This document shows positions 5,669 to 49,564 of a DNA stretch of 64,000 nt, piece by piece. The number at the start of each line of letters is the position of its first letter. Within the stretch, counting starts at the first letter, position 1. The notes under the pieces are model-generated. The model worked only from the letters and a program-made list of their open reading frames with translations. It had not been told where the DNA came from and searched no databases. Position numbers and translations under genes: made by a program. The stretch is from Amoebidium appalachense (Eukaryota; Protista; Ichthyosporea): assembly GCA_963693365.1 (NCBI GenBank), contig CAVNZM010000010.1, positions 7,441,794 to 7,505,793 of the forward strand, given 5' to 3'.

Positions 5669-5764
5669 TTGGTGGGGAGGGGGGAGGGGGAGGGGGGGGG
5701 GGGTGCATGTCTTTAGGGAGATGCATGTACATGTTTTTTTTCTCATTTTTTCGTGTGTGTGTGT

Positions 5765-5819: not shown

Positions 5820-6461
5820 CTACCACTTCACTTTAACAATGTTAGGTGGCTGCGCGGGCGGCCAGAAATACGAGTGTGCACCTGTGGTGTTGTAGTTACC
5901 CATGCCCCCGGTTCCAAAGGTTGCACTTGTGCCGTTTTTCAGAGTCACCAAACCGCTAGTCCCCGTCCCCCATGGCTTACCACCCACGTACACTTGCGCA
6001 CCCCCTGTCCCCCCTCCGTTCCACTCATAGGAAGGCTTGGTGGGTCTGCTGCTACCACTGGGACTCCCTAGATAGTTCTTTACACCGTTAAGGGCATAAT
6101 TTCCCGTCTCCCTGGTGATGTTTTTTAGCCCCCTCCACCCACTGCTTGCGCCACCCTGCACTCCATCAGCCACGCTGGATGCCACACGTTTGCCCCCGCT
6201 CAATGCCATGTTCCCCACCGCCCTTGCTCCCCCCTTGAGCCCCTGCCACGCTGCACCCCCTGCTTCCCCTGCCCTCTCAGCCGCATAGTTGCCCATGGCA
6301 CGTGCCATGTCCCCCTTGTGCTTCCACGCATAGTACCCCCCTGCACCCAAGGCCACACCCCCTGCCAATGGCCCCACCCATTTTGCCACCTCTGCCCCAC
6401 GGTTCTCGTTCTGCACGTAAATGACCCTAGGTCCCTCCTTCCGGTTTGTGCCTATTCCCAT
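5820..6461 (-). CDS. Gly-rich amphipathic protein with hydrophobic N-terminal segment; candidate virion membrane-active protein
   Basis: MGIGTN… start; WVGPLAGGVALGAGGYYAW segment; repeated W-x-G-L-K helices. Confidence 0.7.
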   Translation of the reverse strand: MGIGTNRKEGPRVIYVQNENRGAEVAKWVGPLAGGVALGAGGYYAWKHKGDMARAMGNYAAERAGEAGGAAWQGLKGGARAVGNMALSGGKRVASSVADGVQGGASSGWRGLKNITRETGNYALNGVKNYLGSPSGSSRPTKPSYEWNGGGTGGAQVYVGGKPWGTGTSGLVTLKNGTSATFGTGGMGNYNTTGAHSYFWPPAQPPNIVKVKW

Positions 6462-6778: not shown

Positions 6779-7309
6779 TTAAATCACAAGCTTCTGTTTG
6801 CGGGGATTGGGAGGGTGGGGATCCCAACTCACTACACGTGGCCCGCCCACCCCTTGCTTCTCTGTAAACAGTGCCAGGCACACCCCCTCGGGGCACGGCC
6901 TATCAAACCCCTCATACCGCAATCTACCCCGTACGATCCTTATCTCATTAGCATGTTTGAACAGCAAATCATGAAACCACCGGGTTTCGGTTCTAGCAGG
7001 TACCAACATCACTGTTTTCTTGCCCATGGTGCGCGCCAGCTCAATGGCACGCCTAAGAAACGGTTCAATGGTGAGGAAAGGTGGGTTGATGTAGTTGACT
7101 TGCGTGTCTGAAAACACCGTGTCATTGGTGAGCGCGTTGGGGCTCTTCCCCTCCACATAATCAATGGGGCACGGGTCAGTCAATGGTCCGAACTCGGCGG
7201 TGAGCGTGTCCAACAGCCAGGCCGGTGTCTGCACCTCATCCGTGTCCACCCCCTCCCTCCTCTTTTTGGTGGTGACGGCATACACATGGCTTACGGATCC
7301 CAAACCCAT
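6779..7309 (-). CDS. Phage Dam-type DNA N6-adenine methyltransferase
   Basis: DEVQTP…DPCP…YINPPF (motif IV)…MLVPARTETRWFH…EIRIVRGRL, typical of the small phage N6A-MTase family. Confidence 0.9.
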   Translation of the reverse strand: MGLGSVSHVYAVTTKKRREGVDTDEVQTPAWLLDTLTAEFGPLTDPCPIDYVEGKSPNALTNDTVFSDTQVNYINPPFLTIEPFLRRAIELARTMGKKTVMLVPARTETRWFHDLLFKHANEIRIVRGRLRYEGFDRPCPEGVCLALFTEKQGVGGPRVVSWDPHPPNPRKQKLVI

Positions 7310-19401: not shown

Positions 19402-21250
19402 ATGGCCCAGGGGGACCAGCCTGAGAGAGCCGAGATTCTGAAGCAGCTGGGGCTATTTAGGAACAGTGTCTCACCGGTGGCCGTGTATCGTGTGAAATAT
19501 CAAACCGCCGAGGACGTGAAACACAATAAATGGAGGAACGCCGCGTGGTTCGGATTCGGATCAACCATTATAAGTCCCCGCAGATATCGTGTGTTGTATG
19601 AGAAAGGGCTAGAGGCGTTTTTGGCCCAGGAGGGCTACGAGTCGGTAGCCCGTCCTTGGGACCGTTCCGGAATGCCGCCTGAACGAATCAAACTTGACGT
19701 GTATTATTACGATTCGTGGAAGGAGCTTTTAAGAGACCAGCCACTTCAAACCACCTATGTGCGGCCAGGGAGCGCACTGAGTCACCTTGAAAATGTTCCC
19801 CCCCAACCCGGCACGTTGTCCGAGTCGCCGTCGCCGCCACCACCGTCGTCGAACGTTCCCGACATGGCACACCAGAGAGCCGAGATTCTGAAGCAGCTGG
19901 GGCTATTTAGGAACAGTGTCTCACCGGTGGCCATGTATCGTGTGAAATATCAAACCGCCGAGGACGTGAAACACAATAAATGGAGGAACGCCGCGTGGTT
20001 CCGATTCGGATCAACCATTATAAGTCCCCGCAGATATCGTGTGTTGTATGAGAAAGGGCTAGAGGCGTTTTTGGCCCAGGAGGGCTACGAGTCGGTAGCC
20101 CGTCCTTGGGACCGTTCCGGAATGCCGCCTGAACGAATCAAACTTGACGTGTATTATTACGATTCGTGGAAGGAGCTTTTAAGAGACCAGCCACTTCAAA
20201 CCACCTATGTGCGGCCAGGGAGCGCTCTGAGTCACCTTGAAAATGTTCCCCCCCAACCCGGCACGTTGTCCGAGTCGCCGTCGCCGCCACCACCGTCGTC
20301 GAACGTTCCCGACGTGGCGCCCAACCCACCTCCCCCGGTGCCCCCACCAACGTCCAACTTGAACGTTCCTGACGTGGTGCCCACCCCACCTCCCCCGGTC
20401 CCGATACCTTTCCCTCCCCCTCCCCCAACCACCACCACTACTAGTAGTACTAGTGGTAGTATCACGACCGTGGTCCCCGGACCGGCACCTTTTCCTCCCC
20501 CTCCCCCTCGGGCCACCACCTATCTTACCTCCCCCGCCGGACCACTCTCGTCGAGCGCCGTCACCGTGCCCCCGGGACCCACTACTACTACTAGTACCAC
20601 AAGTTCTGCTCCCGTGCCACGGCCAGCGGTGCCCCCTGCCGCTCAGGCTGTCCCCAGCGTCACTACTAGTACTAGCAGTAGTACCTTGGCCACCGAGTAT
20701 CCAAAAACGAAGAGCACGGTCTCAGTAACCAGCGACCCCACGCGCACCTCTAATTATTTAGAAGGAGTGGTGCCTGCGGTCACCGACTTTGCTAAGGAAG
20801 GCCTTGTTTGGGTGAAGGACAGTGCGGGGGCCGTGGTGGGCGCCATATACCACGTGCCCACTCATGCAGCGCAACTTGCGCAAGTTGCAGCAGGCACCTA
20901 TTCCAAAGTCACAGACACGGGTTACGGCCTTTACGACAGTGCCGGCCGCTATGTTGGGAAAGGGGTCGACAGCGCGGGCTACTATATTGGGAAGGGTGCT
21001 GATGCGGGTTATGACCTTTACGATAGCACCGGCCGCTACATTGGGAAAGGGGTAGACAGTATCAGATCCGCTCTCTCCGGCCTATCCCACCGGATACCTT
21101 TGGAGCGTGGGATTGAGTGGAGCTCGAAAGCTGTGGAGGAGTCGCAGCTTGCCCTTTCCAGCCTCGCCGGCATGGGCTATGGCCTGTACGACAGCGCCGG
21201 CCACTACATAGGAGACCTTGCCCAATACGTCAAGGATTCAGCGTCCCTTA
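19402..21250 (+). pseudogene. Large Pro/Thr-rich viral protein, 5' part; interrupted by a transposon
   Basis: The 636-aa ORF runs into the transposon TIR; it has a 150-aa duplication and GYGLYDSAGxYxG repeats. Confidence 0.75.
19424..20318. repeat. Near-perfect 450-bp tandem duplication (in frame)
   Basis: Sequence at 19424 recurs at 19874 with few substitutions. Confidence 0.95.
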
Positions 21251-22278
21251 CTAAATCAGCAAACTTCATCCGGCATCCGAAACCCATTAAAAACCCATTA
21301 AAGATATCATAAACCCATAAACCCATCTTTTTGCCACTCTTTATCCCCCTCTTGTCTTTTAGATAACATAACAGCATCGTTTTGCTATCACGGGTTTTCT
21401 GGATATCATTTTGGTATCTTTTGCTAGATATCAAAATGATCTCATAATGGGCTCATACGGAGCACCCTGAACCCATCGTTGTTCTATCCTGTGTTCCATG
21501 TATTCAACAACCTCGTTATATCCGTATGATACCATTATGATAGTCTATTTGATATCATAAAATCTTTTTAGTCTGATGTTCAGAAGCGTTTTAGACATAA
21601 TAAAGATATCTCTAATAGCGGATTAGGAGCCCTTCCCCATATCCTTATGGTAGCTATCACATATCCTTACGATATATATGATAATCGATCATAAGATACA
21701 TATATATCTATATGATATCATTTCGAGGTCATTATAGGAGGTTTCGTATATGGTAATACATCTATAAGATACTATTACAGATGTCCTTTTCATATACAAC
21801 GGATAGGTATAGGATGCCGAAAACATTATCTAAAGATCATACGTTAAATGTCATAACGATATAAGCCTCATAACATAAAGATAACTAGGATGGGTCAAAA
21901 GAAATTTCGTAATAATATCGTTTTGATAGTTTTAGGAGCCTTTAAAGATATGAGAAGTTCTGGCTGTATGTCCTCTACACAACATCTTTCTAGTATCTGT
22001 TACATATCGTTAAAACATATAGTAGTTTATCAGCTAACCATTCCTTATGATATTAGTAGCATATCGTTAACATAACTCTGTCACATCTTTTTGACATACA
22101 GCACTTATATCAAAACGATAAATTTAAGGTATAATTAAGATTTATTAAGAATGATTTTCGCAATATAGTTATATTATCCTTTTCATATCATTATGTTATG
22201 TCTTGATATATATGATTGAGCCATTTTCAAAGTTGATATCATCCAGACGTCGTTTCCGATCACTGTTTGATGTCGTTT

Positions 22279-22328
<50 letters not shown>

Positions 22329-22739
22329 CCCCTCACCCCTTTCGAACCTGCCTGTCACGTGGTCATATGTCGTCGAGCCGCTGATTACAGATCCATTTTC
22401 TGCAGACACGTCCCACTGGAACGTGTCAACTATAACTCATCTATTATCTTTTACGTAGGGTTATGTCCCACTGGGGCGTGTCTGTCACTTCAAATATTTT
22501 CTAAGACAAATATTTTCTAAGACAAATATTTTTAAAGACATGTCCTCGGGACATGTCTTCACACAATTTATTCGAACTACGAAAACACACAAAATAAATA
22601 CAGACACACACAAAATAATAATAATAATAATAAAAATAATAAAAAGCTCTGTTACTTTTTCTCTTCGCACACACACACACAAAAAAAAAGAAAAAAAGAA
22701 AAAAAAAGAAAAGTCACTCTTTTGTGTGTGTGTGTGGGG

Positions 22740-24056
22740 GGGGGGGGGGGGGGGGGGGGAAGGAGTATAAAAGAGCAGCAACGAACATAAACAAAACTCA
22801 AAACAAGCAAACTATTATGCGGGTTTCTAAGAAGCTCCCAACATCATTAAACTAAACACATGCTAATCCCTTGACAGAAGAGTAACAAGGTGTGTGTGTA
22901 TGGGTATGAGGCCCAAAAAAAAAAAAAAGGACGCCCAACATGACAATATAAGGGGGGCACTCTTACACCAAACCATACCATACCAAATGCCGGCAGAGTA
23001 ATTAACAGGACAAAGAGCCGGTACCCACCTATGGGTGCTAAACATGCACATGATCATTCATGTGCTATAAGAGCAACACAGAAACGAAACACGGAAACAA
23101 CAGCAGCCATAGGACAAAGAACCAGACCCACAGGGTCTTGCCTCCATACTTTATTTACCTTAACAGGACAAAGAGCCGGTACCCACCTATGAAACGAAAA
23201 ACGGAAACAACAGCAGCCATAGGACAAAGAGCCGGTACCCACCTCTAGATGATAACGTAGCCTTATAGCTGCTGATGACTTCATGGGCCAACCTTGCCAA
23301 AACCTGTAAAGGAACTCGAGCTAAGAATTAGCTCATCCTACTTGCGAGAAGTGGGGGGGAGGGGGGGGGGGGGGGGGGGGGGGGGACTGAGGGGGCTGAC
23401 TGAGAGTGGCAAAAAAAGAGTCGACAGAACCAACCTTAAACATAGTAAGGACGGAAACCCGGACCAGAACTTATGAAGTCTAGAGAAGCAGAAAATAGCT
23501 TGAACGATCGGTGGAGGGGATGATAGCTATAGTGCTAACAGCAAAAGTAGTGCCCACAGTCGCTGGTTCATGAACGTGAAAGGCAACGTGCATCTGCAGC
23601 CAGCAGACACACGCACACGCACGCACGCACACACACATACACACACACACACACAGACACAGACACAGACCAGACAGACAAACGCCATATGCACAAAAGC
23701 AGGCAACACAAAACTAACCTTCAAGAAGAAGCTGCAGCATGCAGCATGCGGAGGGGAAAAAATTGCAAACCGGATTGGGATTTAGCCAATCACTATTCGC
23801 CGCGCCTGATTAGGAAAAAGATAAAAATAGATTTCGGCTCGCGCGCGCGCGTGCATCAGCTTGGTGCCCTTAGCGCTACCCTTAGTGCCCTTAGTCACAA
23901 CTATCAGACTATAGTTACGTGTCCTCCACTTCTTTGTTCTTGACCATTTTTTCGGCATGAAAGGGTTTCTGTTACTTCTTGCTGTCCTTCTTAGCGTGCT
24001 TGCTTGTCTTTTTTTCAACATGGGTGTCACTGGCGCTTTCGACTTCTTTGAAATCA

Positions 24057-24087
<31 letters not shown>

Positions 24088-24481
24088 GCGCGCACGCGCG
24101 CACGCACACACACTCACACATGCACACTGCACACACACACACACACACACACACAGGCGCGCACACACAGGCACGCACACACACACAGGCGCACACCTAC
24201 ACAACACACACAGCACATGCACACACAAGCGCACACACGCACACACCCTGTTATCCCTGATCATGATGCCCCCTCCCCCCTCCCTCTTCCCCCCGCGCAC
24301 CCCCCCCCCCCCCCCCCCCCCCCCCCACCCACCCCACCCACCCACCTACAAAGACGAAAACATTGTACATGTATTGCATACACAAATATACTCGCACATA
24401 TACATACACACATTCACTTTAATCTTTCAGGCTACATGTGCAATATACATTAATTATGCACAGTCGATAGAATTCGTTGTG

Positions 24482-24519
<38 letters not shown>

Positions 24520-24634
24520 TCGTTCCCCCCATATGCAATGGGGATAATATTGTTTCCCGCTATTAATTAAAAAATCACCGTTCTAACTTCTTAAGACCGA
24601 ACCACTTGTAACACCGACAGTTTCGGTTGTGTGG

Positions 24635-24679
<45 letters not shown>

Positions 24680-24790
24680 CCCACCCACCACCTTACCAAT
24701 ATTGAGGTGTACACTGCCCCCACATCCCCAACTGTGTGCTGAATATCCCGTGCTAGGAAACCAATAACGTGAAAGTAACACATGCCGCAT
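22740..24790 (+). repeat. Host repeat block shared with 42385-43270 and 44245-45570
   Basis: Collinear near-identity (e.g. identical track ORFs 23294..23476 and 42933..43115). Confidence 0.9.
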
Positions 24791-26700
24791 GTGGGTAGTT
24801 ATTGAAAAAACCAATAATGTCTAGGTAACATACCGTATGATGTACATATACTATGCTACAAAGGGGGTTCTATACGAGCTACAACGTTGTGTTTTTTTCG
24901 TGTGACCCTCGTACTCCAGGGGCACATTCACCATCCCCCCCATAAACTTTGTGGTAAAGTTCTCGTGCTAGAAGCTGTTCTGTGGGTAGTTATTGAAAAA
25001 ACGAATAATGTCTAGGTAACACATGTACATATGCTATGCTACAAGGGGGGTTCTATTCGAGCTACAATGTTGTGTTTTTTTCGTGTGACCCTCGTACTCC
25101 AGGGGCACATTCACCATCCACCCCATAAACGTTGTGGTAAATCTCTCGTCCTAGAGGCTGTTCTGTGGGTAGTTATTGAAAAACCAATAATGTCTAGGTA
25201 ACATATATATGTACATATACTATGCTACAAGGGGGGTTCTATACGAGCTACAACGTTGTGTTTTTTTCGTGTGACCCTCGTACTCCAGGGGCACATTCAC
25301 CATCCCCCCCATAAACGTTGTGGTAAAGCTCTCGTGCTAGAAGCTGTTCTGTGGGTAGTTATTGAAAAAACCAATAATGTCTAGGTAACATACTATGTAC
25401 ATATACTATGCTACAAGGGGGGTTCTATACGAGCTACAACGTTGTGCTTTTTTCGTGTGACCCTCGTACTCCAGGGGCACATTCACCATCCCCCCCATAC
25501 ACGTTGTGGTAAAGCTCTCGTGCTAGAAGCTGTTCTGTGGGTAGTTATTGAAAAAACGAATAATGTCTAGGTAACACATGTACTTATACTATGCTACAAG
25601 GGGGGTTCTATTCGAGCTACAATGTTGTGTTTTTTTCGTGTGACCCTCGTACTCCAGGGGCACATTCACCATCCACCCCATAAACTTTGTGGTAAATCTC
25701 TCGTGCTAGAGGCTGTTCTGTGGGTAGCTATTGAAAAACCAATAATGTCTAGGTAACATATGTACATATACTATGCTACAAGGGGGGTTCTATACGAGCT
25801 ACAACGTTGTGTTTTTTTCGTGTGACCCTCGTACTCCAGGGGCGCATTCACCATCCCCCCCATAAACGTTGTGGTAAAGCTCTCGTGCTAGAAGCTGTTC
25901 TGTGGGTAGTTATTGAAAAAACCAATAATGTCTAGGTAACATACTATGTACATATACTATGCTACAAGGGGGGTTCTATACGAGCTACAACGTTGTGTTT
26001 TTTTCGTGTGACCCTTGTACTCCAGGGGCACATTCAACATCCCCCCCATACACGTTGTGGTAAATGTCTCGTGCTAGAAGCTGTTCTGTGGGTAGTTATT
26101 GAAACAACCAATAATGTCTAGGTAACACATGGACATATACTATGCTACAAGGGGGGTCTATTCGAGCTACAACATTGTGTTTTTTTCGTGTGACCCTCGT
26201 ACTCCAGGGGCACATTCACCATCTCCCCCATAAACTTTGTGGTAAATGTCTCGTGCTAGAAGCTGTTCTGTGTGTAGTTATTGAAAAAACCAATAATGTC
26301 TAGGTAACATACTATGTACATATACTATGCTACAAGGGGGGTTCTATACGAGCTACAACGTTGTGTTTTTTTCGTGTGACCCTCGTACTCCAGGGGCACA
26401 TTCACCATCCCCCCCATAAACTTTGTGGTAAAGCTCTCGTGCTAGAAGCTGTTCTGTGGGTAGTTATTGAAAAAACGAATAATGTCTAGGTAACACATGT
26501 ACTTATACTATGCTACAAGGGGGGTTCTATTCGAGCTACAAGGTTGTGTTTTTTTCGTGTGACCCTCGTACTCCAGGGGCACATTTACCATCCCCCCCAT
26601 AAACGTTGTGGTAAATTTCTCGTGCTAGAGGCTGTTCTGTGGGTAGTTATTGAAAAACCAATAATGTCTAGGTAACATATGTACATATACTATGCTACAA
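24790..26700 (+). repeat. Tandem satellite, ~184-bp unit, about 10 copies
   Basis: Unit TGTGGGTAGTTATTGAAAAA…CTCGTGCTAGAAGCTGTTC recurring head to tail. Confidence 0.95.
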
Positions 26701-26813
26701 GGTGCTACAAGGGAGGAGATATTTTATGAACGGGAGAGTGAGCCGAGAATGTGTAGATAAAGAACAGAGGAATATCGAGGCAACCGTGGTGTACCCTGTC
26801 TTTATGTGAACAC

Positions 26814-26845
<32 letters not shown>

Positions 26846-26912
26846 CTCGCGCGTTCGTGTCTACCGATGTACGTGCACACGGGCATGTGTTTGGGTGTGT
26901 GTATGTACGTGT

Positions 26913-26967
<55 letters not shown>

Positions 26968-26992
26968 AGGTGCGCATGGTAACGTGTGTGTG

Positions 26993-27068
<76 letters not shown>

Positions 27069-27101
27069 CAACGTGCCTGTGTGTGTGTGTGTGTGTGTGG
27101 C

Positions 27102-27132
<31 letters not shown>

Positions 27133-28627
27133 AGGGCAACGTGTCTGTCTGTGTGTGTGTATCTCTCTCTGTGTGTGTGTGTTTGTGTGTGTGTGTGTGG
27201 CAGCGTGCGTGTCTCGCTGTGTGTGTGTGTGTGTGTGTGTCATGATTGACGACATAGGTTCAGAAGAAGAGTGTGTATCACTACGTTGCAGTTTTCACAT
27301 ACTTTGTAGTTCACGCGCGCGGAGGCATAATGTTAACGTGCGTTACCGGTTATAGAAAGCACAAGCGTAACTAGCGTTTTATATCATAAATAGTCATAAA
27401 ATGGTAACGTTCATTATAACTACGATGCATGAGAATAGAATGATATCAACAATACATACATTAGATATCGTACGGATATCTTGCGATATATCATCTGGTG
27501 TCCGGAGAATGTGCACGTGCCTGTGATGTGCACCCGCCCTAATGCAGTAAGGTATTGTTTTCAGGCGCTAATAAACCTTCAAAGGTGGTAACATCCTCGG
27601 AACACACAAAATATAAAATTGCAATAAATAACCATTTTCCTGCTTCGATGCTCGAAATTGGTACTATGTAGTTACTAGATTGCTCTATTTTGCCTAGTGT
27701 TTAGTGTTTCGGACGTTCGCAATTTACACTCTGCCACATGGCACTTGCCAAATGGGGTAATTTAGTTTTATTTGCGGCCGTTGTGGTTGCGTGTTTATCT
27801 AACAAATATCATTATGAGATGTTTATGACCCCTGTGGGATATGTACAAGATCAGACCATAGAAGATCAGGTCGTTGCGATGTCGTAAAGATGGCAGAAAC
27901 ATATCTTCATTAGATGTATGCGATAATCTCAATTAAACATGAAACGTGATTGGCTGATCACAGTTGGGTGACCCTGAGCATGCCGTTTTGAAGAATAACA
28001 ACCAATCAAAATCGGGTTTGCCATTTTGTGATTTTCGTCCCACAATCGAACGGAAAAGTGATTTCCTGGCCCTATATAAATGGCCATGCCACCATCACAT
28101 TCAGATGGCCGCAATGAGCCCCGCAATGCCCCGTGTGAGTAATTGGCGGGTTTCCCAACGATTGCTCAGCTGGCTTGATCACAAAAATTTTCTTTGCGCG
28201 TATATCGCAACCATTCTCATCGGACATCTAATAGACATCTAAAGGATTTTTCGATTGTTCTTCTGATATCTTTCTAATATCCACAATGCTGCCGTTTAGA
28301 TATCACATTGATGTACTTACAAAAGACACTGACCTTCTACTGCACGGATGTTCTTCTGATATCTTTCTAATATCCACAATACTGCCGCTTAGATATCACT
28401 GGGATGGCAAGCTTATGTATCATATACTTATGAATTCGATATATAAATATATCCCTATGCGGATATCGCAATGATAATCTAAGGGCCTCTAAAAGATATG
28501 TAGATGATACCTCGTGGACTACTGCTCTGGACAAATTAGGATATTCAAATGATAGGTTACAGCATATCACATTGATGTACATAGCGACATCTTACCGATA
28601 TCAATCACACAACTCACTAGTCTTTAC

Positions 28628-29230
<603 letters not shown>

Positions 29231-30321
29231 TTAGATATATCAGGTACATATCCTTACGACGTGTACAAAGATATGAATTAGATATCGTAGCTTGGGCCTG
29301 CAAAGAGGCAGTTGTGATATGTTTGAGATGTAGGACCAAAAACAGATAACATATTGAATATAAAAGGGATATCAAAAAGAATATCAAAAGGATACCCACA
29401 ATGCTGCCGTTTTAGACAGAGCGGGATATTCAAATGATAAGTTACAGCATATCACATTGATGTACATAGGGGCATCTTACACATACCAATCACATATATC
29501 ACAAGTCTTTATTTAGATATATTTGGTACATATCCTTACGACCTGTACAATGATATGAATTAGATATCATATCTTGGGCCTGTGGACAAAGGGATATCCG
29601 AAAGGATATCAAAAGGATGTCTTCAACATGCCTACTGGTTGTGTACAAGGGTATCTTCTGGATTACCCCCATGGGCGCATAACGATATCAAAAAAATGGT
29701 TGTAGGTACATCACAACGATGTCCAGACGATATCAAAACAACATCTGTATTATATTCAATTTATAAGCATACATGTTATCCATCAGATATCACGTGGATA
29801 TCAATTTGTATTGTCCCACGACATCAGGTAGATATCGTCATGTAATGCGTATTGGATGGGATTAAGATATTCTATAATGAGGGATATCTGTAGGCTATAA
29901 CAAAGACATCTAACAGATATCGTTTGGGGCACCAATATCCTAAACGTATGTGAAACATATCCAAAAGAGCTATTATGACCTTGCTAACATACATATCACT
30001 AGGATAGCATATGGATATCATAATGCTATGAGGAAATTTTGAGATTTTCGGTCAAAAACCAAAACCATCGTGGTTTTCTATGATATCGTAAGGATATCGT
30101 AAGGATATCAGCAAAGGATGGGTTTCGGATATGCGCCATACCATAACCAATCCGAACCCTATCAAAGATATCATTGATAGGGATCTGATGGGTTCTATCC
30201 GGGAATTCTATGATATCTTGTCAGGCTCTTTTTGACGTATTTAGGGTGGGGTTTGGTATGCCATATATCAAAATGATATATAAGATGGGTTTCGGATGCC
30301 GGATGAAGTTTGCTGATTTAG

Positions 30322-30833
30322 TAATGTCGCCAAAGGAATGGACGTTCATCAGCGTCCGCGACATGTGGAACGGTGTCTTGAACTGGTACCGGGTACCCGA
30401 CCACGGTCCGGCGCGCTGGGGATGGCGTGCTGGCGAATACGCGTTGCCTGGACAAGCTGTTGAGCCTGCGGTCCCTTCGTTGCCTCTTCTCGGAATGCGA
30501 CCGGAACATATACGTATAACACCCGCCGGCGGCGCCGTTGAACACACTGCTGCGGGGACACCCACCGTGACCGCACCGGTGCCAGTGATGCCACCTATTA
30601 CCGTAATGCCCGGTACTACTACTACTCCTACCACTACTACTGCTGATGAGTCTAGTACAGCAGCCGCGGCCACTGGTATCCGGTCCGTCTATGAAATGAT
30701 AACGGGGGCTTTGGTACCTTCAAGTTGGGGACACACACCTCGGCCTGAGGCTCCCCTGTTCAAGCGGGCCTGCCATATTACGCTGCGCACCTACGTACGC
30801 CCAGAGTGGCATTTGCGCGCACGGGCGGGCTAG
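30322..30833 (+). pseudogene. 3' part of the interrupted Pro/Thr-rich viral gene
   Basis: GC-rich coding sequence resumes right after the TIR (MSPKEWTF…PGTTTTPTTTT), with the same ACT-repeat Thr tracts as the 5' part. Confidence 0.65.
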
Positions 30834-31714: not shown

Positions 31715-32557
31715 TCACTCCACCGGGTGGCCGACGTCCAAGCAAAACATGTTGTATTCGACTAGAAGATGGTACTTTCTTAGGTCCTTTTCAAGCTCTT
31801 GCCATACCTTTTCGCTCTTTACCCTAGTTATTTTACTTTTTACGGCAGGGAGCAGCGGCTCCAGGCTCCTGGCGTCCATGCCGCTCACTAGCCCTACCAT
31901 CTTCACTAGCAGGAAAGGATAGCCAAGGAAGTTCTTGCGTTTGTCGTCCTTATACCGTTTGTGCCATGCTAGGGAAAACTTGAACATGCCCGTGAGCAGC
32001 TCAATCTGTTCGCAGCTGAAGCGGGGCAGCGACCAGCCGTACAGATGCTTCATGATGACAGGTGCGTGCGGGTAATGCTTGGTCAGCTTGTGTTTGCGCA
32101 GGATCTTGCGCACGTGGTCTGCGTCCTTGATGTTGGGTGTGTCCTCAAACGCGCGCCGTACGCCCTCTCCCAGCTCACCCACAGAAGCGTTTAGCCCTTG
32201 TATGGCGTGCAGCAGTTGCTTGAAGTGGTTGATGTGTCTGTAGGGCTGTGACCTCTTCCTGTCCCAGAATGCCGTGCACCCTTCGTATGTGTGTCTCCCT
32301 TCTCCATCGCTTGCATCCCACCCTCTTCCGTCCCACTCCCACTCCTCTTGCCAGTCTTCCGCTTCCCAATCCGTGTGCTCATGATCGTCGTCAGCCTCTG
32401 CCTGTTCGTGTCCCCACGGCAGGGTCGACGGGTTTTCGTTAAGTTCTGTGTCATGCTTGGTGCTGCAGTAGAAGTCAAACAGCATGGGGCACAGATCCAA
32501 CAGCTTTTCGGGATCTGTGGCCCCCTCCACAGCTCGGCACACGCTCTCTTCATCCAT
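31715..32557 (-). CDS. VLTF3: VLTF3-like late transcription factor (poxvirus A2 / Nucleocytoviricota family)
   Basis: YRHINHFKQLL…VRKILRK…KHYPH…LTGMF…KRKNFLGYPFLLVK…VKS…VWQEL matches the VLTF3 pattern (YKR-x-NHF…RKNFL-x-Y…LKS…IW). Confidence 0.85.
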   Translation of the reverse strand: MDEESVCRAVEGATDPEKLLDLCPMLFDFYCSTKHDTELNENPSTLPWGHEQAEADDDHEHTDWEAEDWQEEWEWDGRGWDASDGEGRHTYEGCTAFWDRKRSQPYRHINHFKQLLHAIQGLNASVGELGEGVRRAFEDTPNIKDADHVRKILRKHKLTKHYPHAPVIMKHLYGWSLPRFSCEQIELLTGMFKFSLAWHKRYKDDKRKNFLGYPFLLVKMVGLVSGMDARSLEPLLPAVKSKITRVKSEKVWQELEKDLRKYHLLVEYNMFCLDVGHPVE

Positions 32558-32617: not shown

Positions 32618-33514
32618 TTATACTTTTTGGGCCTCTAGCTCGACCATGACGTGCTCCACAACGGCTTGTGCGAACGCTGCAGGCACACAGTTTCCAATCA
32701 TGCGCTTGCATGCTATGGTTTGGGGTACATGGTCGGTGACGTAGCCGAGGGGCAGGGTCTGCAGTAGTTCCCTTTCACGGTTAGACACCCATCCCACCTG
32801 CTTCATGTCCTTGTCAAAGTAGCGAAACACGTTGCTGGTGACTGTGTAGAAGCCAGGGTAGTCACCATCCAACCTCCTCCTCCTTTTGCCATACACGGGG
32901 TGGGCCACACGCCCCTGACTTAGGGTAGAGCTCGTGACATAGACGGCACCTTCTGGTGGGTTCAAGCACTCTCTCCACCCCATGGACGGTGGCCTGGGCG
33001 CCAGCGCTTGCAGGTCAAACCCACCGTAGCCAATGATGCGCTTGCGCAGCTGCGGGCAGCCGTACTGGCTCAGGTTTAGGACAGCATAGCTGACACCATT
33101 CTTTTCAAACAGGGCCTTGATTTCGGGTACGGGCACCTGCTCAATCGTGTAGGCATCGGGCTTGAAGGCCCGTATGACGTCAATGGCATACTGCACCAGC
33201 CTCAGCCCTTCCTCTACGCGTCGGTGCTTGTAGTTGACCACGCTCAGTTGGGTGCATGGTGGGCTTGCGTGGATGAGCGTGCAGTCGTGCGGCCCCATGG
33301 GAGGCAGCAAGGAGCGGAGTAGCTGCGCAAACTCTGCAGGAGGCACCGTGCCCAGCATGGTTTCCAGGTGCGTAGTGGTGGGGTGGTTGGCCTTGTGCAC
33401 TCTTAATGCCTCTGGCCAGCAGTCGGCTGCTACGGCCACGCTTGCCCCTGCCTTAGCAGCCCCACACGAGTAGCCACCCCCACCACAGAACAAGTCTACG
33501 AGATAGAGCACCAT
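32618..33514 (-). CDS. C5-cytosine DNA methyltransferase (Dcm-like, catalytic domain only)
   Basis: Motif I DLFCGGGG, IV ASPPCTQLS, VI EQV, VIII QLRKR, X IGNCVP. True start is MVLYL at 33514; the upstream extension is microsatellite. Confidence 0.93.
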   Translation of the reverse strand: MVLYLVDLFCGGGGYSCGAAKAGASVAVAADCWPEALRVHKANHPTTTHLETMLGTVPPAEFAQLLRSLLPPMGPHDCTLIHASPPCTQLSVVNYKHRRVEEGLRLVQYAIDVIRAFKPDAYTIEQVPVPEIKALFEKNGVSYAVLNLSQYGCPQLRKRIIGYGGFDLQALAPRPPSMGWRECLNPPEGAVYVTSSTLSQGRVAHPVYGKRRRRLDGDYPGFYTVTSNVFRYFDKDMKQVGWVSNRERELLQTLPLGYVTDHVPQTIACKRMIGNCVPAAFAQAVVEHVMVELEAQKV

Positions 33515-33569
33515 TCTCACACACACACACATACACACACACACACACACACGCACACAAAAAAACCAT

Positions 33570-33715
33570 GCCCCACCAAAGACATGCACCCCCTCCCCCC
33601 CCCCCCCTCTCCCCAAGACATGCACCCCCCCCCCCCCTCTCCCCGAGACATGTACCCCCCCTCCCCCCTAAAGACATGTACCCCCCCCCCCCCAAAGACA
33701 TTACTTCCCCCCCCC
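33570..33715. repeat. About five copies of (A/G)AGACAT-x-x-A + C-tract motif
   Basis: AAGACATGCACCCCC, GAGACATGTACCCCC etc. at ~30-bp spacing. Confidence 0.75.
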
Positions 33716-33730
33716 CCCTCCCTCTCCGTT

Positions 33731-34180: not shown

Positions 34181-36708
34181 CTAGAACTCAATCTCCTCCC
34201 CAGCCCACCCAATGGGGTAGGTGCGGATGCCGTTGCTGGTGCACACTACCCCCCGCTTGTCGAAGGCCCCTGACTGTGTCTTTGTGGTGTCCTTGTTCAC
34301 GATCACGTTGGTGAGGTAGATGCCCTTCTCCCTCGTGATCTTGTCCTTGTACTCGACCGTGAAGGCATCCACCTCACCTGCCACCAACCTGTGCAGGTTC
34401 TGTAATGTGATGATGTCTGTGGCCCGGCGGGAGAGGGTGATGCCTTTGACCTTGACGTCCATCTTGCCGTCCCTGCAGCGGTACGCGTACGTCTTGGGGG
34501 CCACATTGACAAACTCCACAATGGGTGAGTCTGTCTCCTCCTTCCAATTGCCCAGCAGGTCCCCGTTCTCGGTGCTGATGGTGTGGCTGAGGTGGGGCTT
34601 GCTCTTGTCGTAGTAGTAGACAATGGAGTCGGTGTCCATGTAGACCACCTGTTGAGGGCTGAGGGACTTGAGGGTCCGGAAAAGGTGCAGGCGTGCGTGC
34701 GCAGTGACGTAGGTGCCGATGGCAATGTTTGCGTAGGAGGGGGGTGGGGCTGTCTCCCGCTTGTGCCGGTACTTGACGGCCAGCCTGTTGTTGCCAACCA
34801 CCTGGATGTCCAACACTTGCAGGTTGGGGTTGTCGATGAGCCTCATCATCTTCTCCGGGCAGTCGATGTACTCCACCCACGGCGTGTCCATGCCTGCCCT
34901 TTGCACCAGCTTGCCCCACAGGCTGTTGAGGAACAGTTTGCTAATGGTGCGCAGTGCAGCGTTGGGCCTGAACTCGTCCGGCACGATGGTGATGTTGTAC
35001 TTCTCCAGCTGGGCCTGGACGACTCGGAGGGCGGGCACCTCCTCGGGCTTCACCTTGGTGGACACCAACTTGAGCTTGAGGAAGGTCTTGACGTAGTCTT
35101 GGAACAGGTGGGTGGACGTGTTGGGGTAGTGCACCACATCGTACACCTCTAGCAGCGTGTAGCCCTCGTTCAGTGCCTCCTTGATCTCCTCTGTGGTCCA
35201 TGTGCCCACGAAGGCCCTCTCCTCGTCCGTGTGTGTACACTGCGCGTGCTGCCTTGCCTGCGTCATGCACTCCCTGTCCCCCACCTCCCCTTGCAAGGCG
35301 CTGCATCCCTTGGCGCACAGCCTGCACTCTGGGAAGGCCAGCTTCTCGGATCCCTGGGCGCCGCTCATGCGTACGGGCAGGACAGGGATGAAGCACCCCC
35401 TCTTGCACGCAATACGCACGCGCGCCATGCCAAAGTAGTTGCCTGCCACCAATTCACGTTGCAGCTCGCTTGCGCTCACCACCTTGGCTTCGGGGAAGTC
35501 GTTGGTGCTGATGTCCAGGGCCGTTAACCACACTGGCTTGCCCACAGGCATGCGTTTGTCAAACATGACAAAGGGGTAGAGGGAGGTGACATCCACATAG
35601 GCCATGCCGACGTTGGGGTCGTGCTCGTCCACCTTGAGGTACCGGGTCACCACCTCCGTGCGCCCACCAAAGAAGGCCTCACGGATCTGCACCGGGCCCG
35701 TGGGCTTGGGGGCCAGCCGGCCCGTGTCCCCCCTCCGCATGTTCTGCTCGGCAATGGCCCGCTTCACCTCAGGTGTGTGTCTCTTGGCCTCCCAATCACA
35801 CTCCCACATGCTCTCCACCCTGTGCCCCCTCTCCCTGATGAAGGCCTCGTGCTGCATGGTGAGCTTGTGGCAGCTCTTTGCCGTCCTGCTCGTGACTCTT
35901 GCCGTGATGTCTGCATCCTTGTTGCACCTGGGGCAGCCGTGGAAGGCGCACCCATGGAAGAAGTAGTAGGTGGTGACGTTCTGCTCGTTGGAGTGCGCTG
36001 CATCGGCCCTGAAACGTGTGCCCTGCCCCTGCCTGTGGTTCTGGGTGGTGAAGCCGGTGACTGGGTGTCGTTGTATGTCGTCTGGCCCCTTGCCCAGCTG
36101 GTGTGTGATGTAGTCAACGTACTCCTGCTCCTTCTTGCTGGTGTTGATGTTGCCCATGGCACGGTCCCTGTGCACGGGGATGTCCTTGGGCTTGGCATGG
36201 GTGATCCAGAAGTGGAGGGAGAGGGAGGCCAAGGTGACGCAGGTGAAGGGGTCGATGTTGGTGAGCTGCACGAACTTGGTCTGGAAGTTCTTGACCACTT
36301 GGCGCAGCAGCTCGACGTCCTTCTTGCAGTACTCGATGCATTCACCGAGTATGTCATAGCACCGGTCGGCAGGCAGCCCCTTGCTCTCCTGGGCCACCTT
36401 CTCGGCCTGGTGCCAAGGCTTGAACTCCTTGACGTAGTAGCGCTCACGCATGTCTGCTGACCCGAACTCCTCCTCCGCAGGGAAGGGGATCATGCCGGCC
36501 TTGAAGTTCTCAAAGGTGGCTGCCCGGTGGGGGAAGTGGCCCTTGGTCTCCTCACACCCCATGGCCTTGCCAGCATCGTCCAGGCGCATGGTAAGGAAGT
36601 TGTACGTGTCCACAAACATGATGTCCACTGCTGTCTGCACGTTGCCCTTGCCCTTCTCCCTCTTCCTCTTCCTCCCACCACCCTCTGCCTGCTGGGTGTC
36701 CTCGTTGC

Positions 36709-36770
<62 letters not shown>

Positions 36771-39563
36771 GCATCGGGCTGGGGCTGGGGCTGGGCTGGG
36801 GGTGCTGAGGTCTGCCGTGGCTTCTTGAGGTAGTGGGTGATCCTGGCCGTCTTGATCTTGGAGTTGGAGAGCACTGGGCGGTAGATGTAGTCGCTCTCAC
36901 CCACCACCCGCTCGGTGATGAAGTGGAAGTCGAAGCCACCCCCGTTGTGGCAGAAGACGCGCGCGCCATGGTGGCGTGGGTTGTTGAAGATGTAGTCGTT
37001 CACTTGGTCAATGACGTTAAACTTGTCGTCCCGCAGCACATCCCACATGTTCTTGCCGGCCTGCTCGTCGGCAGGGGAGGGCTTGGGCAGCAGCACCACG
37101 GGCTCGGAGGGTTGGCCGGGCAGGGGGTCGACCAGGTTGACGACGGCCATGTACACCACGTGGCGCACCTTCCTGTCCTCGGGCTGGCTGCCCTCCTCGG
37201 CCACCGGCATTGTCTCAAACTTTGAAGTCGAGGACAATGTCGGACACTGGCCTCCTCGTCTGCTTCCACGCGCTGCTGCTGTTGGGGGGCAGGTGGTGGG
37301 GGCACACGTGGTCACCGGTGGGCATGGCATCGTCGTCTAGCCGTGGCTGACGTGCAGGTGGGTCCTCCCCCTCCTCCTCTTCCTCCCCTTCCCCCCCTCC
37401 CCCTCCCCCTCTTCCTCCTCCTCTGCTGCTGCTGCTGCTGCTGCTGCCCCCCTTGCGTGTGTAGCAGGCCAGCCGGTCACACCCCTCCACTGTGCACATG
37501 TACACGGGTTCGGCCGGCCGCTTGCTGCGTATGTAGCAGGGGTGGTCAATGGGCATGTAGCCACCACAGCCTGGGCAGTCCACGTCGCTGCATGCGTGCT
37601 GCTTCCATGTGTCGTCCTTTGGCTTCTTGCCCCGGCCCTCCTCCTCCTCCTCCCCCTCCCCCTCCCCCTCGTCATCTCCCTCGAAGAGACCCTCCCCCCC
37701 AAAGAGGTCCTCCCCCTCCTCCTCCTCCTCCTCCTCCTCCTCTGTGTCCATGGGCATGGCATGGCCGTGCTGCCCATCAGCCCCCTCCTGCTCCTGCTGC
37801 AGCTGCGCGCGCAGTTGGCGCACGCGCGCGTAGCGGTACTTGAGGTGGTACCTGCCGGCCGGGTTGCCCGTGAGCACTGTGCCCGTGGCGCTGCACTTGC
37901 TCATGATGCCGTGCACGCACGTGTCCCCCCTGCACCAGAACACACGGTCGCACGTCTGACCCTTGTGGTTGTCCATGCAGGTCTTGGAGGGGAAGATGCC
38001 GTTGCAGCCCGCGCATGTGTACGGCCAGCCCTCCTCCCCCAGCTCGGCCAGCTGCCGGCGCCGCTCCATGGTCCACTGGCATGCCCCGGCAAAGTCGGTG
38101 AGTGACCCCTTGTTGCCGCAGTTGTCGCACTGGTTGATGCATATGTGCGCGCCGTACTTGTCCCGCCTGACGGTCCTGTTGCAGTAGAAGCATGTGGTGT
38201 ACTGACGGTGGAGGCTGCCTTCGTACTTGGCCAGGTTCAGCCGTTCGTAGACATGGCTCACGTGCCTGACAATGGGCACGTAGTGGCGCAGCTTGTGGAA
38301 GTAGGCCATGTAGATGGTGCACAGCTGGGCAGGGGGTATGCCAGTGCTCATCTCACCGAACCTTGCCAGCAGGAGGCCCTTGCTGTCCCCGCCCAGCAGC
38401 ACGAGGCGCAGCCGGCCACTGTGGCCCTGGTCATGCAGCGCCTGGTTGAGCTTGGACACGGCCACCTGCAGCTGATGGGGGGTCAAGCCGAACTGGCCAG
38501 GCAAGGGCAGCTCGTACTTGTTCTGCAGCACATGGGCTGCTCGGGCCAGCCGGCGCAAATAAAGATCGGGGTGCTTGACTGTGTGGCGTGTTTTGGGCGG
38601 CAGCACGAGGCTGCACACCCTGCATGTTGCCCCGGTGCGCGTGTTGGTGTGGGTGCCGGTGCCGAGCACTTCCTCGGCCGTCAGCAGCTTGCATAGGATG
38701 TGGTTGTCCGCACGCCTGCGTAGATCTGATCGTTGCATGTCTGTGGGCAGTTTGTAGCTCTCGTTGGCGTTGGCCGGCTGCTTTACCCAGTGCGCCGCAC
38801 CGTACACCAATGACACCAGCCCGCACCATGTGCCGGCCACCTGCCTCAGCACGGGTTCATCCCCCCTGTGCTCCCCCACGTCCACCCCGGAGGGCGGCAC
38901 GTTCACAGCCATGCCAACCATGGTGCCCACGTCGGGCACGTCGGCCTTGTGCTCCATGCGCGCCACGCCCCTGAAGGCAGCGCTGTCTGCACCCCGCTCC
39001 AGACTTGCACCCCCGCACCCCCCGCTGGGCTGCAGGTCCGATCGGCGCACGATGGTGAGGTGCACCTGGGATGTGTTGTCGATGTAGGTTTCCGCTGCGC
39101 TCTGGGTGCGCTCACGTATGCTCTCCATGAACTTGAGCACAATGGCGGCCACGTCACCGTCATATTCGGTCAGCCCGCCCGCTGTGAACACACGGGTGCC
39201 TGCCTGCACGTCCTCACCCTCTGATCCCTCCTGCATGGCCACCCCCTGCCTCTCCACGCGCATGCTCAGGATGCGCATGAGCAGGCGGTCGCCAGGCACT
39301 ACCCCGGCCCGGCTTATGGCGTCCGTGATGATGGCCGTGAAGAAGTCGGGGAACTCGGTCACGTCCAGGCGTCGGTTGACGCGGTAGTCGTACACCATGG
39401 AGCGCACGCCCAGCCCTCTTGCTTGGTCGTTCTCAGTGTGTGACTCCAATCGCCACATGGGTGGGCGGCCGGCCGGTGGGGGGTCCAGCCTGTCCATGAT
39501 GTCCAGAAACTCGTCAATGTTAGCGTCCCAGTAGGGATCCGCGGCATAGTCCTGAGATGCCAT
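34181..39563 (-). pseudogene. polB: Protein-primed family B DNA polymerase (~1790 aa when repaired) with N-terminal TP/vOTU-like/Zn-finger region and Vsr-like nuclease insertion; frameshifted in ExoI
   Basis: ExoI IVLD|FET split between ORFs 37215..39563 and 34181..37330; ExoII HNGGGFD; ExoIII YCKKDV; YVDVTSLYP, KLFLNSLWGK, YMDTDS, APKTY, KVKGI; FHGCAFHGCPRC…WECDW insertion. Confidence 0.95.
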
Positions 39564-39940: not shown

Positions 39941-40169
39941 ACACGTGCAGGTACACCCACACGTGCACAGTGGGCCGGTCCGGCCCGCACCGCCAGCTAA
40001 CAGCTCCAGTGCACATATGTGCCCCTGGCCCGGCCCAGCCGGCCCTGTACCGGCAGCATGGCCCGTAAGCCACCGGGCAGCCAATCAAAATCCGTAGAAG
40101 GACAAATACACGAGCCGCGACCCCTCTGTCCCGGGAGACAAAGCACGGAAATGAGACCCTTATTGTAGT
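39941..40169 (-). repeat. Right terminal inverted repeat (229 bp)
   Basis: Reverse complement of 587-816. Confidence 0.97.
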
Positions 40170-40174
40170 CCTCT
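40170..40174 (+). repeat. 5-bp target-site duplication CCTCT, right copy
   Basis: Directly follows the right TIR; the next ~40 bp match the empty site at 44208-44243. Confidence 0.93.
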
Positions 40175-43515: not shown

Positions 43516-44838
43516 TATCTCTCTCTCCCTTGTTTCTGTGGGCACAGATATCTGTAGATCTGTGCACACCTAGCTCTCTTGCCTGATAAGAACTTATTGT
43601 ATTTTATTTCTGTTTGCTCTCCTCTGTTTATCTGAGAGGTAGCGTGATTGGCTAGCTTCACTCGTTGTCTTTCCTTTATTTCAAAATGGCTTAGTTTTGT
43701 TCTCAAAAGGATGGCTCGCCAATAGTCGCGAGCGAGCACATCTGTAGATCGTGTTGTGCATTCCTGTCTATTAATATATGTGTGTTGTGATTGGACAATA
43801 GATATATATGGAATTCGGTTTATTGCAAAGTGTCTTCACTTTGAGAGTGTCGACTATTAGGAAATATATGTATTTAAATAAGTTTCTTCATAGAGACGAA
43901 CATAAATATATATGTGAGTTAATAGTGACTAGATGTATAATTACTTAATTTATTTAAGTAAGAGTTTCTAAACTTTAGTTTAATCGGAAGTTGGAATGCG
44001 TATGCTCTGTCGGAATGTGTTTTTCTATCTTCTGATAGAACCGATTGGTTCTCCCTCTTTAGTTGTGATAAGATGATAAGTCGCAAGTACAAAAGGAACC
44101 GAGAGCTCAATAAAGAATCAGTTGTTCTTTGAAATCTTTCAATGTCTCGTGAACAACTCCGATTGCCCTCTCATTAATGTGTTAGTCGTGTTTTACATGA
44201 CACCTCTGTGCACTCTGCTCCCTTAGACCCGTACAAAACAACACACACACACAGACACAGACACAGACCAGACAGACAAACGCCATATGCACAAAAGCAG
44301 GCAACACAAAACTAACCTTCAAGAAGAAGCTGCAGCATGCAGCATGGTCCAAAACAATCAGCACGGTGGCTGCGCGATCTGCGGAGGGGATCTGTGACCA
44401 GGCGCTGCGGGAAGGGAACTGCGACCAGGCGACCTGCGGGAAGGGACCTGCGACCAGGCGACCTGCGGGAAAGGACCTGCGGACCTGCGGGAAGGGGGAA
44501 GAGAAATGGAGAAAACAACGTGCGTACAGGCTTAAATGGAGAAAAAATTGCAAACCGGATTGGGATTTAGCCAATCACTATTCGCCGCGCCTGATTAGGA
44601 AAAAGATAAAAATAGATTTCGGCTCGCGCGCGCGCGTGCATCAGCTTGGTGCCCTTAGCGCTACCCTTAGTGCCCTTAGTCACAACTATCAGACTATAGT
44701 TACGTGTCCTCCACTTCTTTGTTCTTGACCATTTTTTCGGCATGAAAGGGTTTCTGTTACTTCTTGCTGTCCTTCTTAGCGTGCTTGCTTGTCTTTTTTT
44801 CAACATGGGTGTCACTGGCGCTTTCGACTTCTTTGAAA

Positions 44839-47290: not shown

Positions 47291-48193
47291 CTCCAAAATA
47301 TGGTGAAATCTACGATATCCGGCGAGCATGTTTGTATGTCGTAGTCCACATGTCGACGATATTATGTATCGTCTTACGACCGTTTGTACCGTACGATATA
47401 TCGTTTTACGACAGTAATATGGATGGTATTGTTACAGTCTTGGGGATGGCCCATGGATATACATAAGGCGTGTTATGGATTATGTTTGGACATCTTTATT
47501 ACACCTACTAGACATGTGAACCACCGAAAGGTGGATACTACAAGATGGATACATTTGCACGGTTAATAACGTGCAGGGGATTGATGGGGCCCCAACCAAA
47601 TTTTGCATTAGGCAGTGTCTCTGTGTGGGTGATGTAACAAAACCGGTCGGACTGTCCCGGGAAAAGTTATTGACCGTTGTACGTCCATATTATGCAAAAT
47701 GCTCTGTAATACATAGGGAAAGGGGGGGGGATTCAACGGTTAATAACGTGCAGGGGATTGTTGGGAGCACAACCAAACTTTGCATTAGGCAGTTTCTCTG
47801 TGTGGGGGGTCTAACAAAACCGGTCGGAATGGGGGGATATCACCACTTTCATTCCGCGGCCACCTGATGAGCCTCATCCGCTTTCCATGAGGCGTGCAAA
47901 AACAAATTCACATGTCAGTTGCGCCCGTTAGATAATCTCCTTGTGATCATTATGATGACCGTATGGATTTTGGTATGTGATCACTATAATGATCGTATGA
48001 GGCATAGAATGAGATCATTATGATGATCGTATGGGGGTATAACTAGCGATCCTTATGGTGGTCGTATGGGGCATATAATGAGATCATTATAATGATCGTA
48101 TGGGGGTATAATTAGCGATCCTTATGGTGGTCGTATGGGGCTTCTATGAAAAACTACTCCGGGGGTCATTCATTCCCAGGACACCCCTACCCC

Positions 48194-48248
<55 letters not shown>

Positions 48249-48349
48249 TATATATATATCATATATATATCATATATATAGTATACTGTATATATATACA
48301 TAAAACTATTGTACTTATACATTATAAAAACCCCAACTTATATATATAT

Positions 48350-49564
48350 AGGTGGTGCAAGGCAAACCTTATGATCCTTAACATAGACAAATGTGGTGTT
48401 CTTGTACCTGATATAGCTAACAATTTACACACATTTACATTATCATCTAAACCTGTACCTATAGTTCCAGAATACAAATATCTTGGTGTTCCGGTTGATT
48501 CTGTTGGTGTTATGTTTCCCCATATGGTCGAAAAGAGGGTAGAGTTGGCTCGTAAGCGGTTAGCTTTCTTCTCGGCTAATATTTTTAAAGACACACCCCT
48601 CCATCCTTCTATTAGACTTACATTTATTCGCACTTTTGTCTTCCCGGCATGTGAATATGGTTTACCCCTTCTCGCCGCTTGGATCAAGAAAGAGAGAACT
48701 AGAGCGCTTAAACCCTTGGCAAATTTCCTTGAAGCAGAAGTTGCCTCCTTTCTATCTAACAACTGTTGTAAACCTGGGCCTGTAACGCTCTCGATATATG
48801 GTCTGGTCCCAATAGCTGCTAGAGTATCCTATCTCGCGCTGAAATTCAATAAGCACATAAGCCGCTTAAAGAAGTATTTGCCCTCCCACCCTCTCTTCTC
48901 TATCCGACCTGTCCCCTCCTCACCTCTCCCCTCTTTCCTCCCCTCTCTCTCCCCTTCTCCCCTGGGCACAAATACAAATAAACCCCGCAATAGTGTGTGT
49001 GTGACTTTGGACTGCCACTTACTTATTAAACATGTACACAATCACAAGATAATCACGCAATATAACAAATGGAAAAAGATACCACACGACACTAGACCCG
49101 ATGAAAGCATACACCTTGAAAAACTAAGCCTTATGTCTCGTTTTATATATACTGACCGCCTCAACCATATTGCCAAATATGGCACTCGCAAGTGTATAAC
49201 ACCTAAATACATTTTACCTTCCTGTAGAACTGGTCTTTCTCTAGCTGATGGTATTATTGATCAATTACCACGCTTTTACTGTACACGTGCTATACAGTGG
49301 AGATCTAATAAGTATAAGGTGGCATCATTTGCATGCCCAAACAACACACACACACACCAGTTTAACCGGTCATGTATCGCCAAATGTAGTTTGATAGACC
49401 ACATAATACCGCAACACACACACGTCACATTCACAACAGACACCCAGAAAGATAGCCTACCTGTAAATTACAACATCCTTGATTTTATACTAAACACGCG
49501 TAACTACGACCTGTTTATTAGATGTATTGATTGGCTTGAGAAACACATCACTACAAAATTATAG
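48350..49564 (+). mobile_element. 5'-truncated non-LTR retrotransposon (RT C-terminal/thumb region onward)
   Basis: WCKANLMILNIDKC…EYKYLGV motif; flanked by (TA)n and a 34-bp direct repeat (48298-48331 / 49957-49990). Confidence 0.8.

Follow-up and report, generated by a model that had tools for sequence, protein, structure and literature searches.

The closest described systems are the adintoviruses reported from Amoebidium, which are approximately 30 kb in length, have terminal repeats, encode VLTF3, Dam, capsid proteins, and PolB, and are CG-hypermethylated (Sarre et al. 2024, PMC11244446; this and all other papers cited here are referred to in the part of each that was available). The host range of Amoebidium is given in that study as freshwater arthropods, and 10 of its 18 DNMTs lie in giant-virus insertions. 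No C5 enzyme is named in Amoebidium-type adintoviruses in the available part of that study or in the rest of the literature searched; its figures S1B and S4B, or the supplements of preprints, could show one. More widely, the Dam and Dcm families were noted in 2015 as a "common theme" in PLVs (PMC4642659), more than half of 632 PLV/virophage genomes encode a methyltransferase (PMC7805220), and some PLV genomes encode three or more (10.64898/2026.06.19.733378). Genes of both classes are found here as well; the available literature gives neither clade, motif VI, nor specificity for the published ones and does not name the genomes that have both. Uncharacterised giant-virus DNMTs, the sister group of the Amoebidium GEVE DNMTs, are by their description also single-domain viral C5 enzymes (PMC11244446), whereas the carrier here is a 30 kb virus. 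The EpiLTR retrotransposons are likewise mobile elements with adenine- and cytosine-type methyltransferases, but these are retroelements with a chromodomain, methyltransferase domains within the element ORFs, and a DNMT4-related enzyme (10.64898/2026.05.21.726589), whereas the genes reported here are separate from one another and belong to a DNA virus in which no reader domain was found.

The window, which is the whole stretch of 64,000 nucleotides of Amoebidium appalachense DNA that was analysed, contains an integrated element at 587–40169. Its span of 39.6 kb includes a nested insertion of 9,071 bp, without which the element is 30,510 bp, and it shares this size, methylation, and the gene set of VLTF3, Dam, and PolB with the Amoebidium adintoviruses. 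The terminal inverted repeats, target site duplication, protein-primed PolB, and A32/FtsK ATPase identify it, on sequence grounds, as an integrated virus of the Polinton/adintovirus type. Dam and Dcm in PLVs and a VLTF3-plus-Dam element in Amoebidium are already published, and the gene pair is expected for this virus group. The features are as follows.

587–816, plus strand: left terminal inverted repeat of 230 bp, with the target duplication CCTCT in front of it at 582–586
6779–7309, minus strand: Dam-like amino-methyltransferase, 176 aa, PF05869, motif NPPF
7410–8888, minus strand: putative retrovirus-type (rve) integrase, PF13683, E = 5.9e-5, 23.2 bits, below the cut-off of 26.5
16403–17158, plus strand: A32-like packaging ATPase, PF04665, E = 2.5e-10
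17398–18966, plus strand: probable double-jelly-roll major capsid protein, a lead only, from language-model look-alikes
21251–30321, no strand: nested 9,071 bp insertion, TA-flanked with inverted ends, not viral, interrupting the viral ORF that starts at 19402
31715–32557, minus strand: VLTF3-like late transcription factor, PF04947, E = 1.4e-13
32618–33514, minus strand: C5-cytosine DNA methyltransferase, 298 aa, short variable region, motif VI EQV
34181–39563, minus strand: protein-primed DNA polymerase B in frames 37215–39563 and 34181–37330, PF03175, E = 5e-43
39941–40169, minus strand: right terminal inverted repeat, at 99.1% identity with the left one, with CCTCT behind it at 40170–40174
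43625–44240, plus strand: empty target site, a paralogous host repeat without the virus

The 5 bp target duplication is confirmed by this paralogous host repeat, which carries a single CCTCT and no virus. The copy at 587–40169 is probably defective, judging from PolB, which lies in two frames, and from the disturbed integrase region, which has a 90 bp tandem duplication (8086–8280) and an apparent frameshift and in which the copy in sequencing run X8 differs. The PolB frames overlap at about 37215–37336, and the break, which may be a mutation, an assembly error, or a programmed frameshift, is close to what is presumably the first exonuclease motif. The nested insertion, which we take to be Tc1/mariner-like from its TA flanks, carries host repeats and a 183–186 bp tandem array at 24790–26700, and there is a 445 bp tandem duplication (99%) at 19424–20318 within a Pro/Thr-rich viral ORF. 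The capsid candidate has Atlas look-alikes at 0.96–0.98 in Preplasmiviricota capsid clusters, with a recognition value that is low and below threshold; it has no Pfam match and no BLAST match to the candidate in L232, a PolB-related viral locus. In that locus, which is distant and may be partial, no obvious methyltransferase was seen by eye among the 14 listed ORFs. The search for VLTF3 homologues returned no match. Adintoviridae sensu Starrett 2021 have an adenain maturation protease and an OTU-like PolB N-terminus (PMC8502044); here, no adenain-type or other protease family was found among the ORFs scanned, most viral ORFs being without a family match.

The ORF at 32618–33514 is stop-free over its 298 aa in translation, and its product matches Pfam PF00145 (E = 5e-19, 69.3 bits, cut-off 22), scoring 45.9 bits against TIGR00675, under the cut-off of 100.65. 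The motifs are in canonical order, with DLFCGGG (I), SPPC with C87 (IV), EQV with E125 (VI), QLRKR (VIII), RE..LQTLP (IX), and IGNCVP (X), following the usual numbering of C5 methyltransferase motifs. The catalytic residues C87, E125, R157, and R159 are all kept. The original prediction, made from the sequence alone, was therefore right that the major motifs are intact with EQV in place of ENV, and also that the gene adjoins VLTF3, which begins 60 bp downstream. The AlphaFold model (pLDDT 85.5, pTM 0.87) has a predicted C5 methyltransferase fold spanning the whole domain, with residues 198–221, in the variable region, uncertain. It aligns with M.HaeIII over 255 residues (Z 25.2, rmsd 2.9) and with DNMT1 over 265 residues (Z 25.5, rmsd 3.1), and M.HaeIII, M.HhaI, DNMT1, and DNMT3 are tied at Z 23–25. 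The fold and catalytic motifs are common to E. coli Dcm, M.HhaI, and M.HaeIII, from which the protein differs in being only 16–21% identical in structural alignments, in its shorter variable region, and in having EQV rather than ENV. A six-frame profile search of the whole window for both methyltransferase families found exactly one C5 gene and one Dam-like gene. From its sequence and model, 32618–33514 is an intact stand-alone C5-cytosine methyltransferase gene, with the methyl transfer itself being predicted.

The reading preferred here, by analogy and tentatively, is that an orphan C5 enzyme guards its own viral DNA against the nucleases of a helper virus or of a competitor and is silent when integrated. 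For donor, activity, timing, and protective role, we infer that the gene was likely acquired from the pool of genes carried by giant viruses in the same host, and that the enzyme would methylate newly made viral DNA, replicating or packaged, in the active phase and so shield it from such nucleases. The Dam-like gene would be a second, independent shield and not a partner of the C5 enzyme. In the integrated state, the methylation seen at nearly all CpGs of the element would probably be the work of the host, and both methyltransferase genes would likely be silent. Protection from giant-virus restriction is a published hypothesis for PLV methyltransferases (10.64898/2026.06.19.733378; PMC9356565; PMC12220804), while the finding of methylation without apparent role in Acanthamoeba Mimiviridae/virophage systems (PMC7253447) counts against the protective reading. 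Evasion of helper-virus defence had been suggested from the sequence, and this agrees by analogy with the usual published view of self-protection against helper or competitor nucleases, but no cognate restriction enzyme was identified in any helper virus. Nuclease families were found neither in 33 window ORFs searched against Pfam nor in 19 searched against PHROGs, where again most viral ORFs have no family match.

The relatives of the C5 protein were collected with a nine-sequence profile, which gave 759 cluster representatives at E ≤ 1e-30, clade membership having been checked for part of them. In the best 150 of these, motif VI is EQV in 105, EEV in 26, ENV in 15, and something else in 4. 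That EQV results from decay is ruled out, this being the majority state among the best 150 relatives, and it is instead a trait of the clade in which the catalytic glutamate is kept. The one other C5 group with a changed motif VI in the literature consulted is RID/Masc1 (DNMT4), a fungal clade with EQT or EET, in which the recognition domain is likewise short and for which unusual substrates have been proposed (PMC6709928). By the same token, the motif VI and the short variable region of the enzyme here may point to a changed substrate, with the enzyme acting elsewhere, on the DNA of a helper giant virus, on host chromatin, or on RNA. A cytosine carboxymethyltransferase is indeed among the top two matches in the PDB sequence search, although weakly (E = 1.6e-5). 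That the enzyme has such a substrate is considered very doubtful, given that no targeting domain is fused to it, that 25 of the 26 longer clade members in a domain scan have the methyltransferase domain alone or an overlapping methyltransferase match, and that many C5 enzymes score alike in the structural comparison.

The tree had 82 rows, drawn from the nearest 25 among the 150, one in five of the others, the locus proteins, Dcm, and 12 bacterial-type matches, leaving out the 2,643 aa P0097 and eukaryotic DNMTs; it came from a quick search with a midpoint root and without bootstrap. In this tree the C5 protein is within a 64-row clade (SH-aLRT 100), outside of which are Dcm, on a long branch, and the bacterial-type enzymes, and it groups (SH-aLRT 98) with P0162 and P0115 (KAI9549594.1, KAI9549679.1). 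These are its nearest relatives among the best 150 of the 759 representatives, at 39% identity, and both are on one 183 kb contig of a Daphnia sinensis assembly. That contig is possibly co-assembled giant virus or epibiont sequence. Amoebidium lives on crustaceans such as Daphnia. One named clade member is from Tribonema minus, and in the top Atlas clusters for the C5 protein every member that has a record is viral (100%); a search of viral contigs with the C5 protein as single query found no close relative, and the scans made with alignments covered 18, 13, and 10 of 64 parts, or 5 of 64 parts for metagenomes. The clade is, on these comparisons, uncharacterised, largely viral, and separate from E. 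coli Dcm. The phylogeny that had been proposed as a check, against bacterial, NCLDV, and eukaryotic enzymes, sets the protein apart from Dcm in a tree drawn without eukaryotic DNMTs. One clade member is in a nucleocytovirus-like contig, L001, which also carries RNA polymerase Rpb2, a capping enzyme, an A32 ATPase, and VLTF3.

A giant-virus source of the C5 gene is plausible from these contexts. Members of the clade are, however, also present in contigs that look like those of prokaryotic viruses (L157, L159, L164/L166, and L222), so that the donor is not fixed; the small-virus contigs L157, L159, and L164 have pPolB or other polymerases. The ENV branch of the clade is seen in two small pPolB virus-like contigs, at L222:61-10094 and L157:616-5824. 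In L222 it is accompanied by a PF05869 gene, what is probably a third methyltransferase, an ATPase, and a capsid-like ORF, and in L157 there is a DpdA gene nearby. Five tandem paralogues of the EQV/EEV clade are found in a metagenomic contig at L154:2969-7489. The gene reported here is a clean and testable member of this large, apparently unassayed, viral clade with a changed motif VI.

The Dam-like protein matches PF05869 (E = 1.4e-12, 48.1 bits, cut-off 28.1) and has the catalytic NPPF motif, scoring 35.1 against TIGR01712, below the cut-off of 97.05; a sequence search for a related solved structure found none. It had been claimed that the virus carries both 5mC and 6mA writers. The presence of two intact methyltransferase genes of different class on one viral element stands, while the writing itself is a prediction; the Dam of an endogenized adintovirus gave no increase in 6mA in dam- E. 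coli, which its authors consider may be technical (10.64898/2026.05.21.726589), and this result counts against the label of a dual writer. The distances of about 6.2 and 6.7 kb from opposite ends are correct, with 6,193 bp between the left end and the nearest edge of the Dam-like gene, and 6,656 bp between the right end and that of the C5 gene; measured from the start codons, they are 6,723 and 6,656 bp. Both genes are on the minus strand and so are not mirror-oriented, and this placement is treated as chance, because the genes are unrelated and on the same strand and because the measure was picked after the fact.

Of the proposed dual self-modification system, then, the two genes are present, but there is no sign of coordination: the genes are not related, a distance of 25 kb separates them, and the closest relatives of the C5 gene are elsewhere. 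Nor is the combination unusual, since Dam and Dcm genes are published in PLVs and the metagenomic contigs L163 and L222 each pair a C5-clade gene with a PF05869 gene. It is highly unlikely that this small virus borrowed a giant-virus enzyme of the EQV clade in order to write the two chromatin marks that its host itself uses, 5mC, for its own latency or the silencing of a helper, alongside 6mA from the Dam-like enzyme that would keep reactivation genes accessible. If such a dual-mark reading were true, a close relative of animals would harbour an epigenetic latency switch encoded by a virus. The preferred protective reading has the two genes as independent shields.

The methylation of the integrated copy bears on these readings. 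In runs X9 and X10 the changes are only C>T and G>A (with one G>T in X9), which shows that these are base-converted libraries. The 23 contig pieces, counted as displayed and partly overlapping, have 1,665 changes against 1,651 non-CpG C, with 590 CpG C. At 30325–30440, 17 of 17 non-CpG C are converted and 14 of 14 CpG C are kept, and at 5931–6071, where 23 C are converted and 6 kept, the split between non-CpG and CpG is exact. The contigs of converted libraries give majority states, they cover approximately 100 bp of the C5 ORF, and 6mA is not readable from them. A low-depth contig (4.7) over the 5' part of the C5 gene, X9 record 29 at 33245–33477, has one change and is probably from an unconverted fraction; this piece was set aside from the count. 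Nearly every CpG of the integrated copy is methylated, whatever its context, and at the consensus level methylation is seen at no non-CpG motif. This bisulfite-type comparison, which had been put forward as a check for self-modification, shows dense methylation across the element without supporting marking of the element by its own enzymes. All-context CG hypermethylation is reported in every class of viral insertion and in transposons of Amoebidium (PMC11244446), and the CpG-only pattern matches this host signature; nothing in it indicates that the integrated copy is marked by either enzyme. The CpG methylation is, by analogy, probably host silencing.

A CpG-specific viral enzyme would be invisible against this background, and the same pattern of CpG methylation alone is what it would leave. 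The C5 enzyme might be a CpG or CG-motif methylase, through which a pre-methylated viral genome would pass for silenced host DNA and go into latency, or stay in it, after integration, with the mark of the Dam-like enzyme perhaps being opposite and permissive. CpG has been lost in 11 viral ORFs (observed/expected 0.58–0.90) with an excess of TpG, which would fit. Amoebidium uses both 5mC and 6mA (PMC12695648), the two marks are in opposition in a latent giant virus (10.64898/2026.10.09.758095), and retrotransposons with both enzymes exist (10.64898/2026.05.21.726589). The host alone accounts for the pattern, however, given its reported hypermethylation of every class of viral insertion and of transposons, and the host flanking repeats are at least as CpG-depleted (observed/expected 0.62) as the viral ORFs. 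Mimicry of this kind is unlikely, and the setting of latency by the C5 enzyme, as originally suggested, is possible only if it is CpG-specific.

The search for a target motif in the composition, by Markov and codon-shuffle comparisons, found only CpG-containing depletions and no non-CpG motif. The motif z-scores are from 19 pieces, one of them out of frame, and the silent-site figures from the corrected set. There is no depletion of CCWGG (z -1.2), which is the target of Dcm, an enzyme outside the clade of the C5 protein, and GATC occurs about as often as expected (z -0.3). Silent-site loss of CpG is strongest in CGC/GCG, with a C fraction of 0.51 before GC and GCG at 0.52 among NCG codons, and CGC/GCG is the context most methylated by the Amoebidium host (PMC11244446). 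The probable host is one where 5mC controls viral silencing. If the C5 enzyme were CpG-specific, or acted on a helper virus, this would be a small virus manipulating the silencing code of its host, while an enzyme marking a non-CpG motif would be ordinary anti-nuclease armour, in keeping with the protective reading.

The stretch is present in 9 of the 24 listed sequencing runs. In X8, which has a different organism label, a contig over the C5 gene has 9 differences in 2,184 bp, and the ORF is without indels. Three of the listed differences are in the C5 ORF, two of which change an amino acid, both outside the motifs, and the Dam-like gene of X8 is frameshift-free with four listed substitutions. 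With regard to the suggestion that absence from other copies of the element would weigh against the dual system, both methyltransferase genes are intact in X8; no single contig joins them there, and their contig depths are similar (79–88). An X8 contig aligns only from 30324 onward, which is consistent with a copy that lacks the nested insertion.

That two of the three X8 differences in the C5 gene alter an amino acid, too few to test selection, might suggest that the gene is a recently captured passenger of little or no benefit, intact because the insertion is young. The near-identity of the terminal repeats (99.1%) and the perfect target duplication do indicate a recent insertion. One divergent paralogue of the C5 gene, at about 82% across some 100 bp, is seen in X1, X6, and X8 and is the sole one at 80% identity or above, whereas many contigs stack on the conserved VLTF3 and integrase stretches. 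This contrast is uninformative, since the Dam-like gene, which the literature gives as a hallmark of such elements, is at the same single depth as the C5 gene, and the attempt to count related elements carrying the C5 gene by contig depth was accordingly rejected. The passenger explanation is doubtful in that every catalytic motif is kept even though the nearest relatives are only 39% identical, and in that the C5 gene, with a GC3 of 0.69, does not stand out from the remaining viral genes (0.64–0.85), which suggests long residence.

Upstream of the C5 gene, at 33567–33727, there are three copies of the sequence AAGACATGY between poly-C runs, and one copy (5705–5713) is upstream of the ORF at 5084–5746. 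There are 6 copies in the window against 1.2 expected, and this sequence is possibly a viral promoter element. Outside the virus, an AT-rich ORF at 48146–49564, which has no Pfam match, resembles by eye the C-terminal part of a non-LTR reverse transcriptase.
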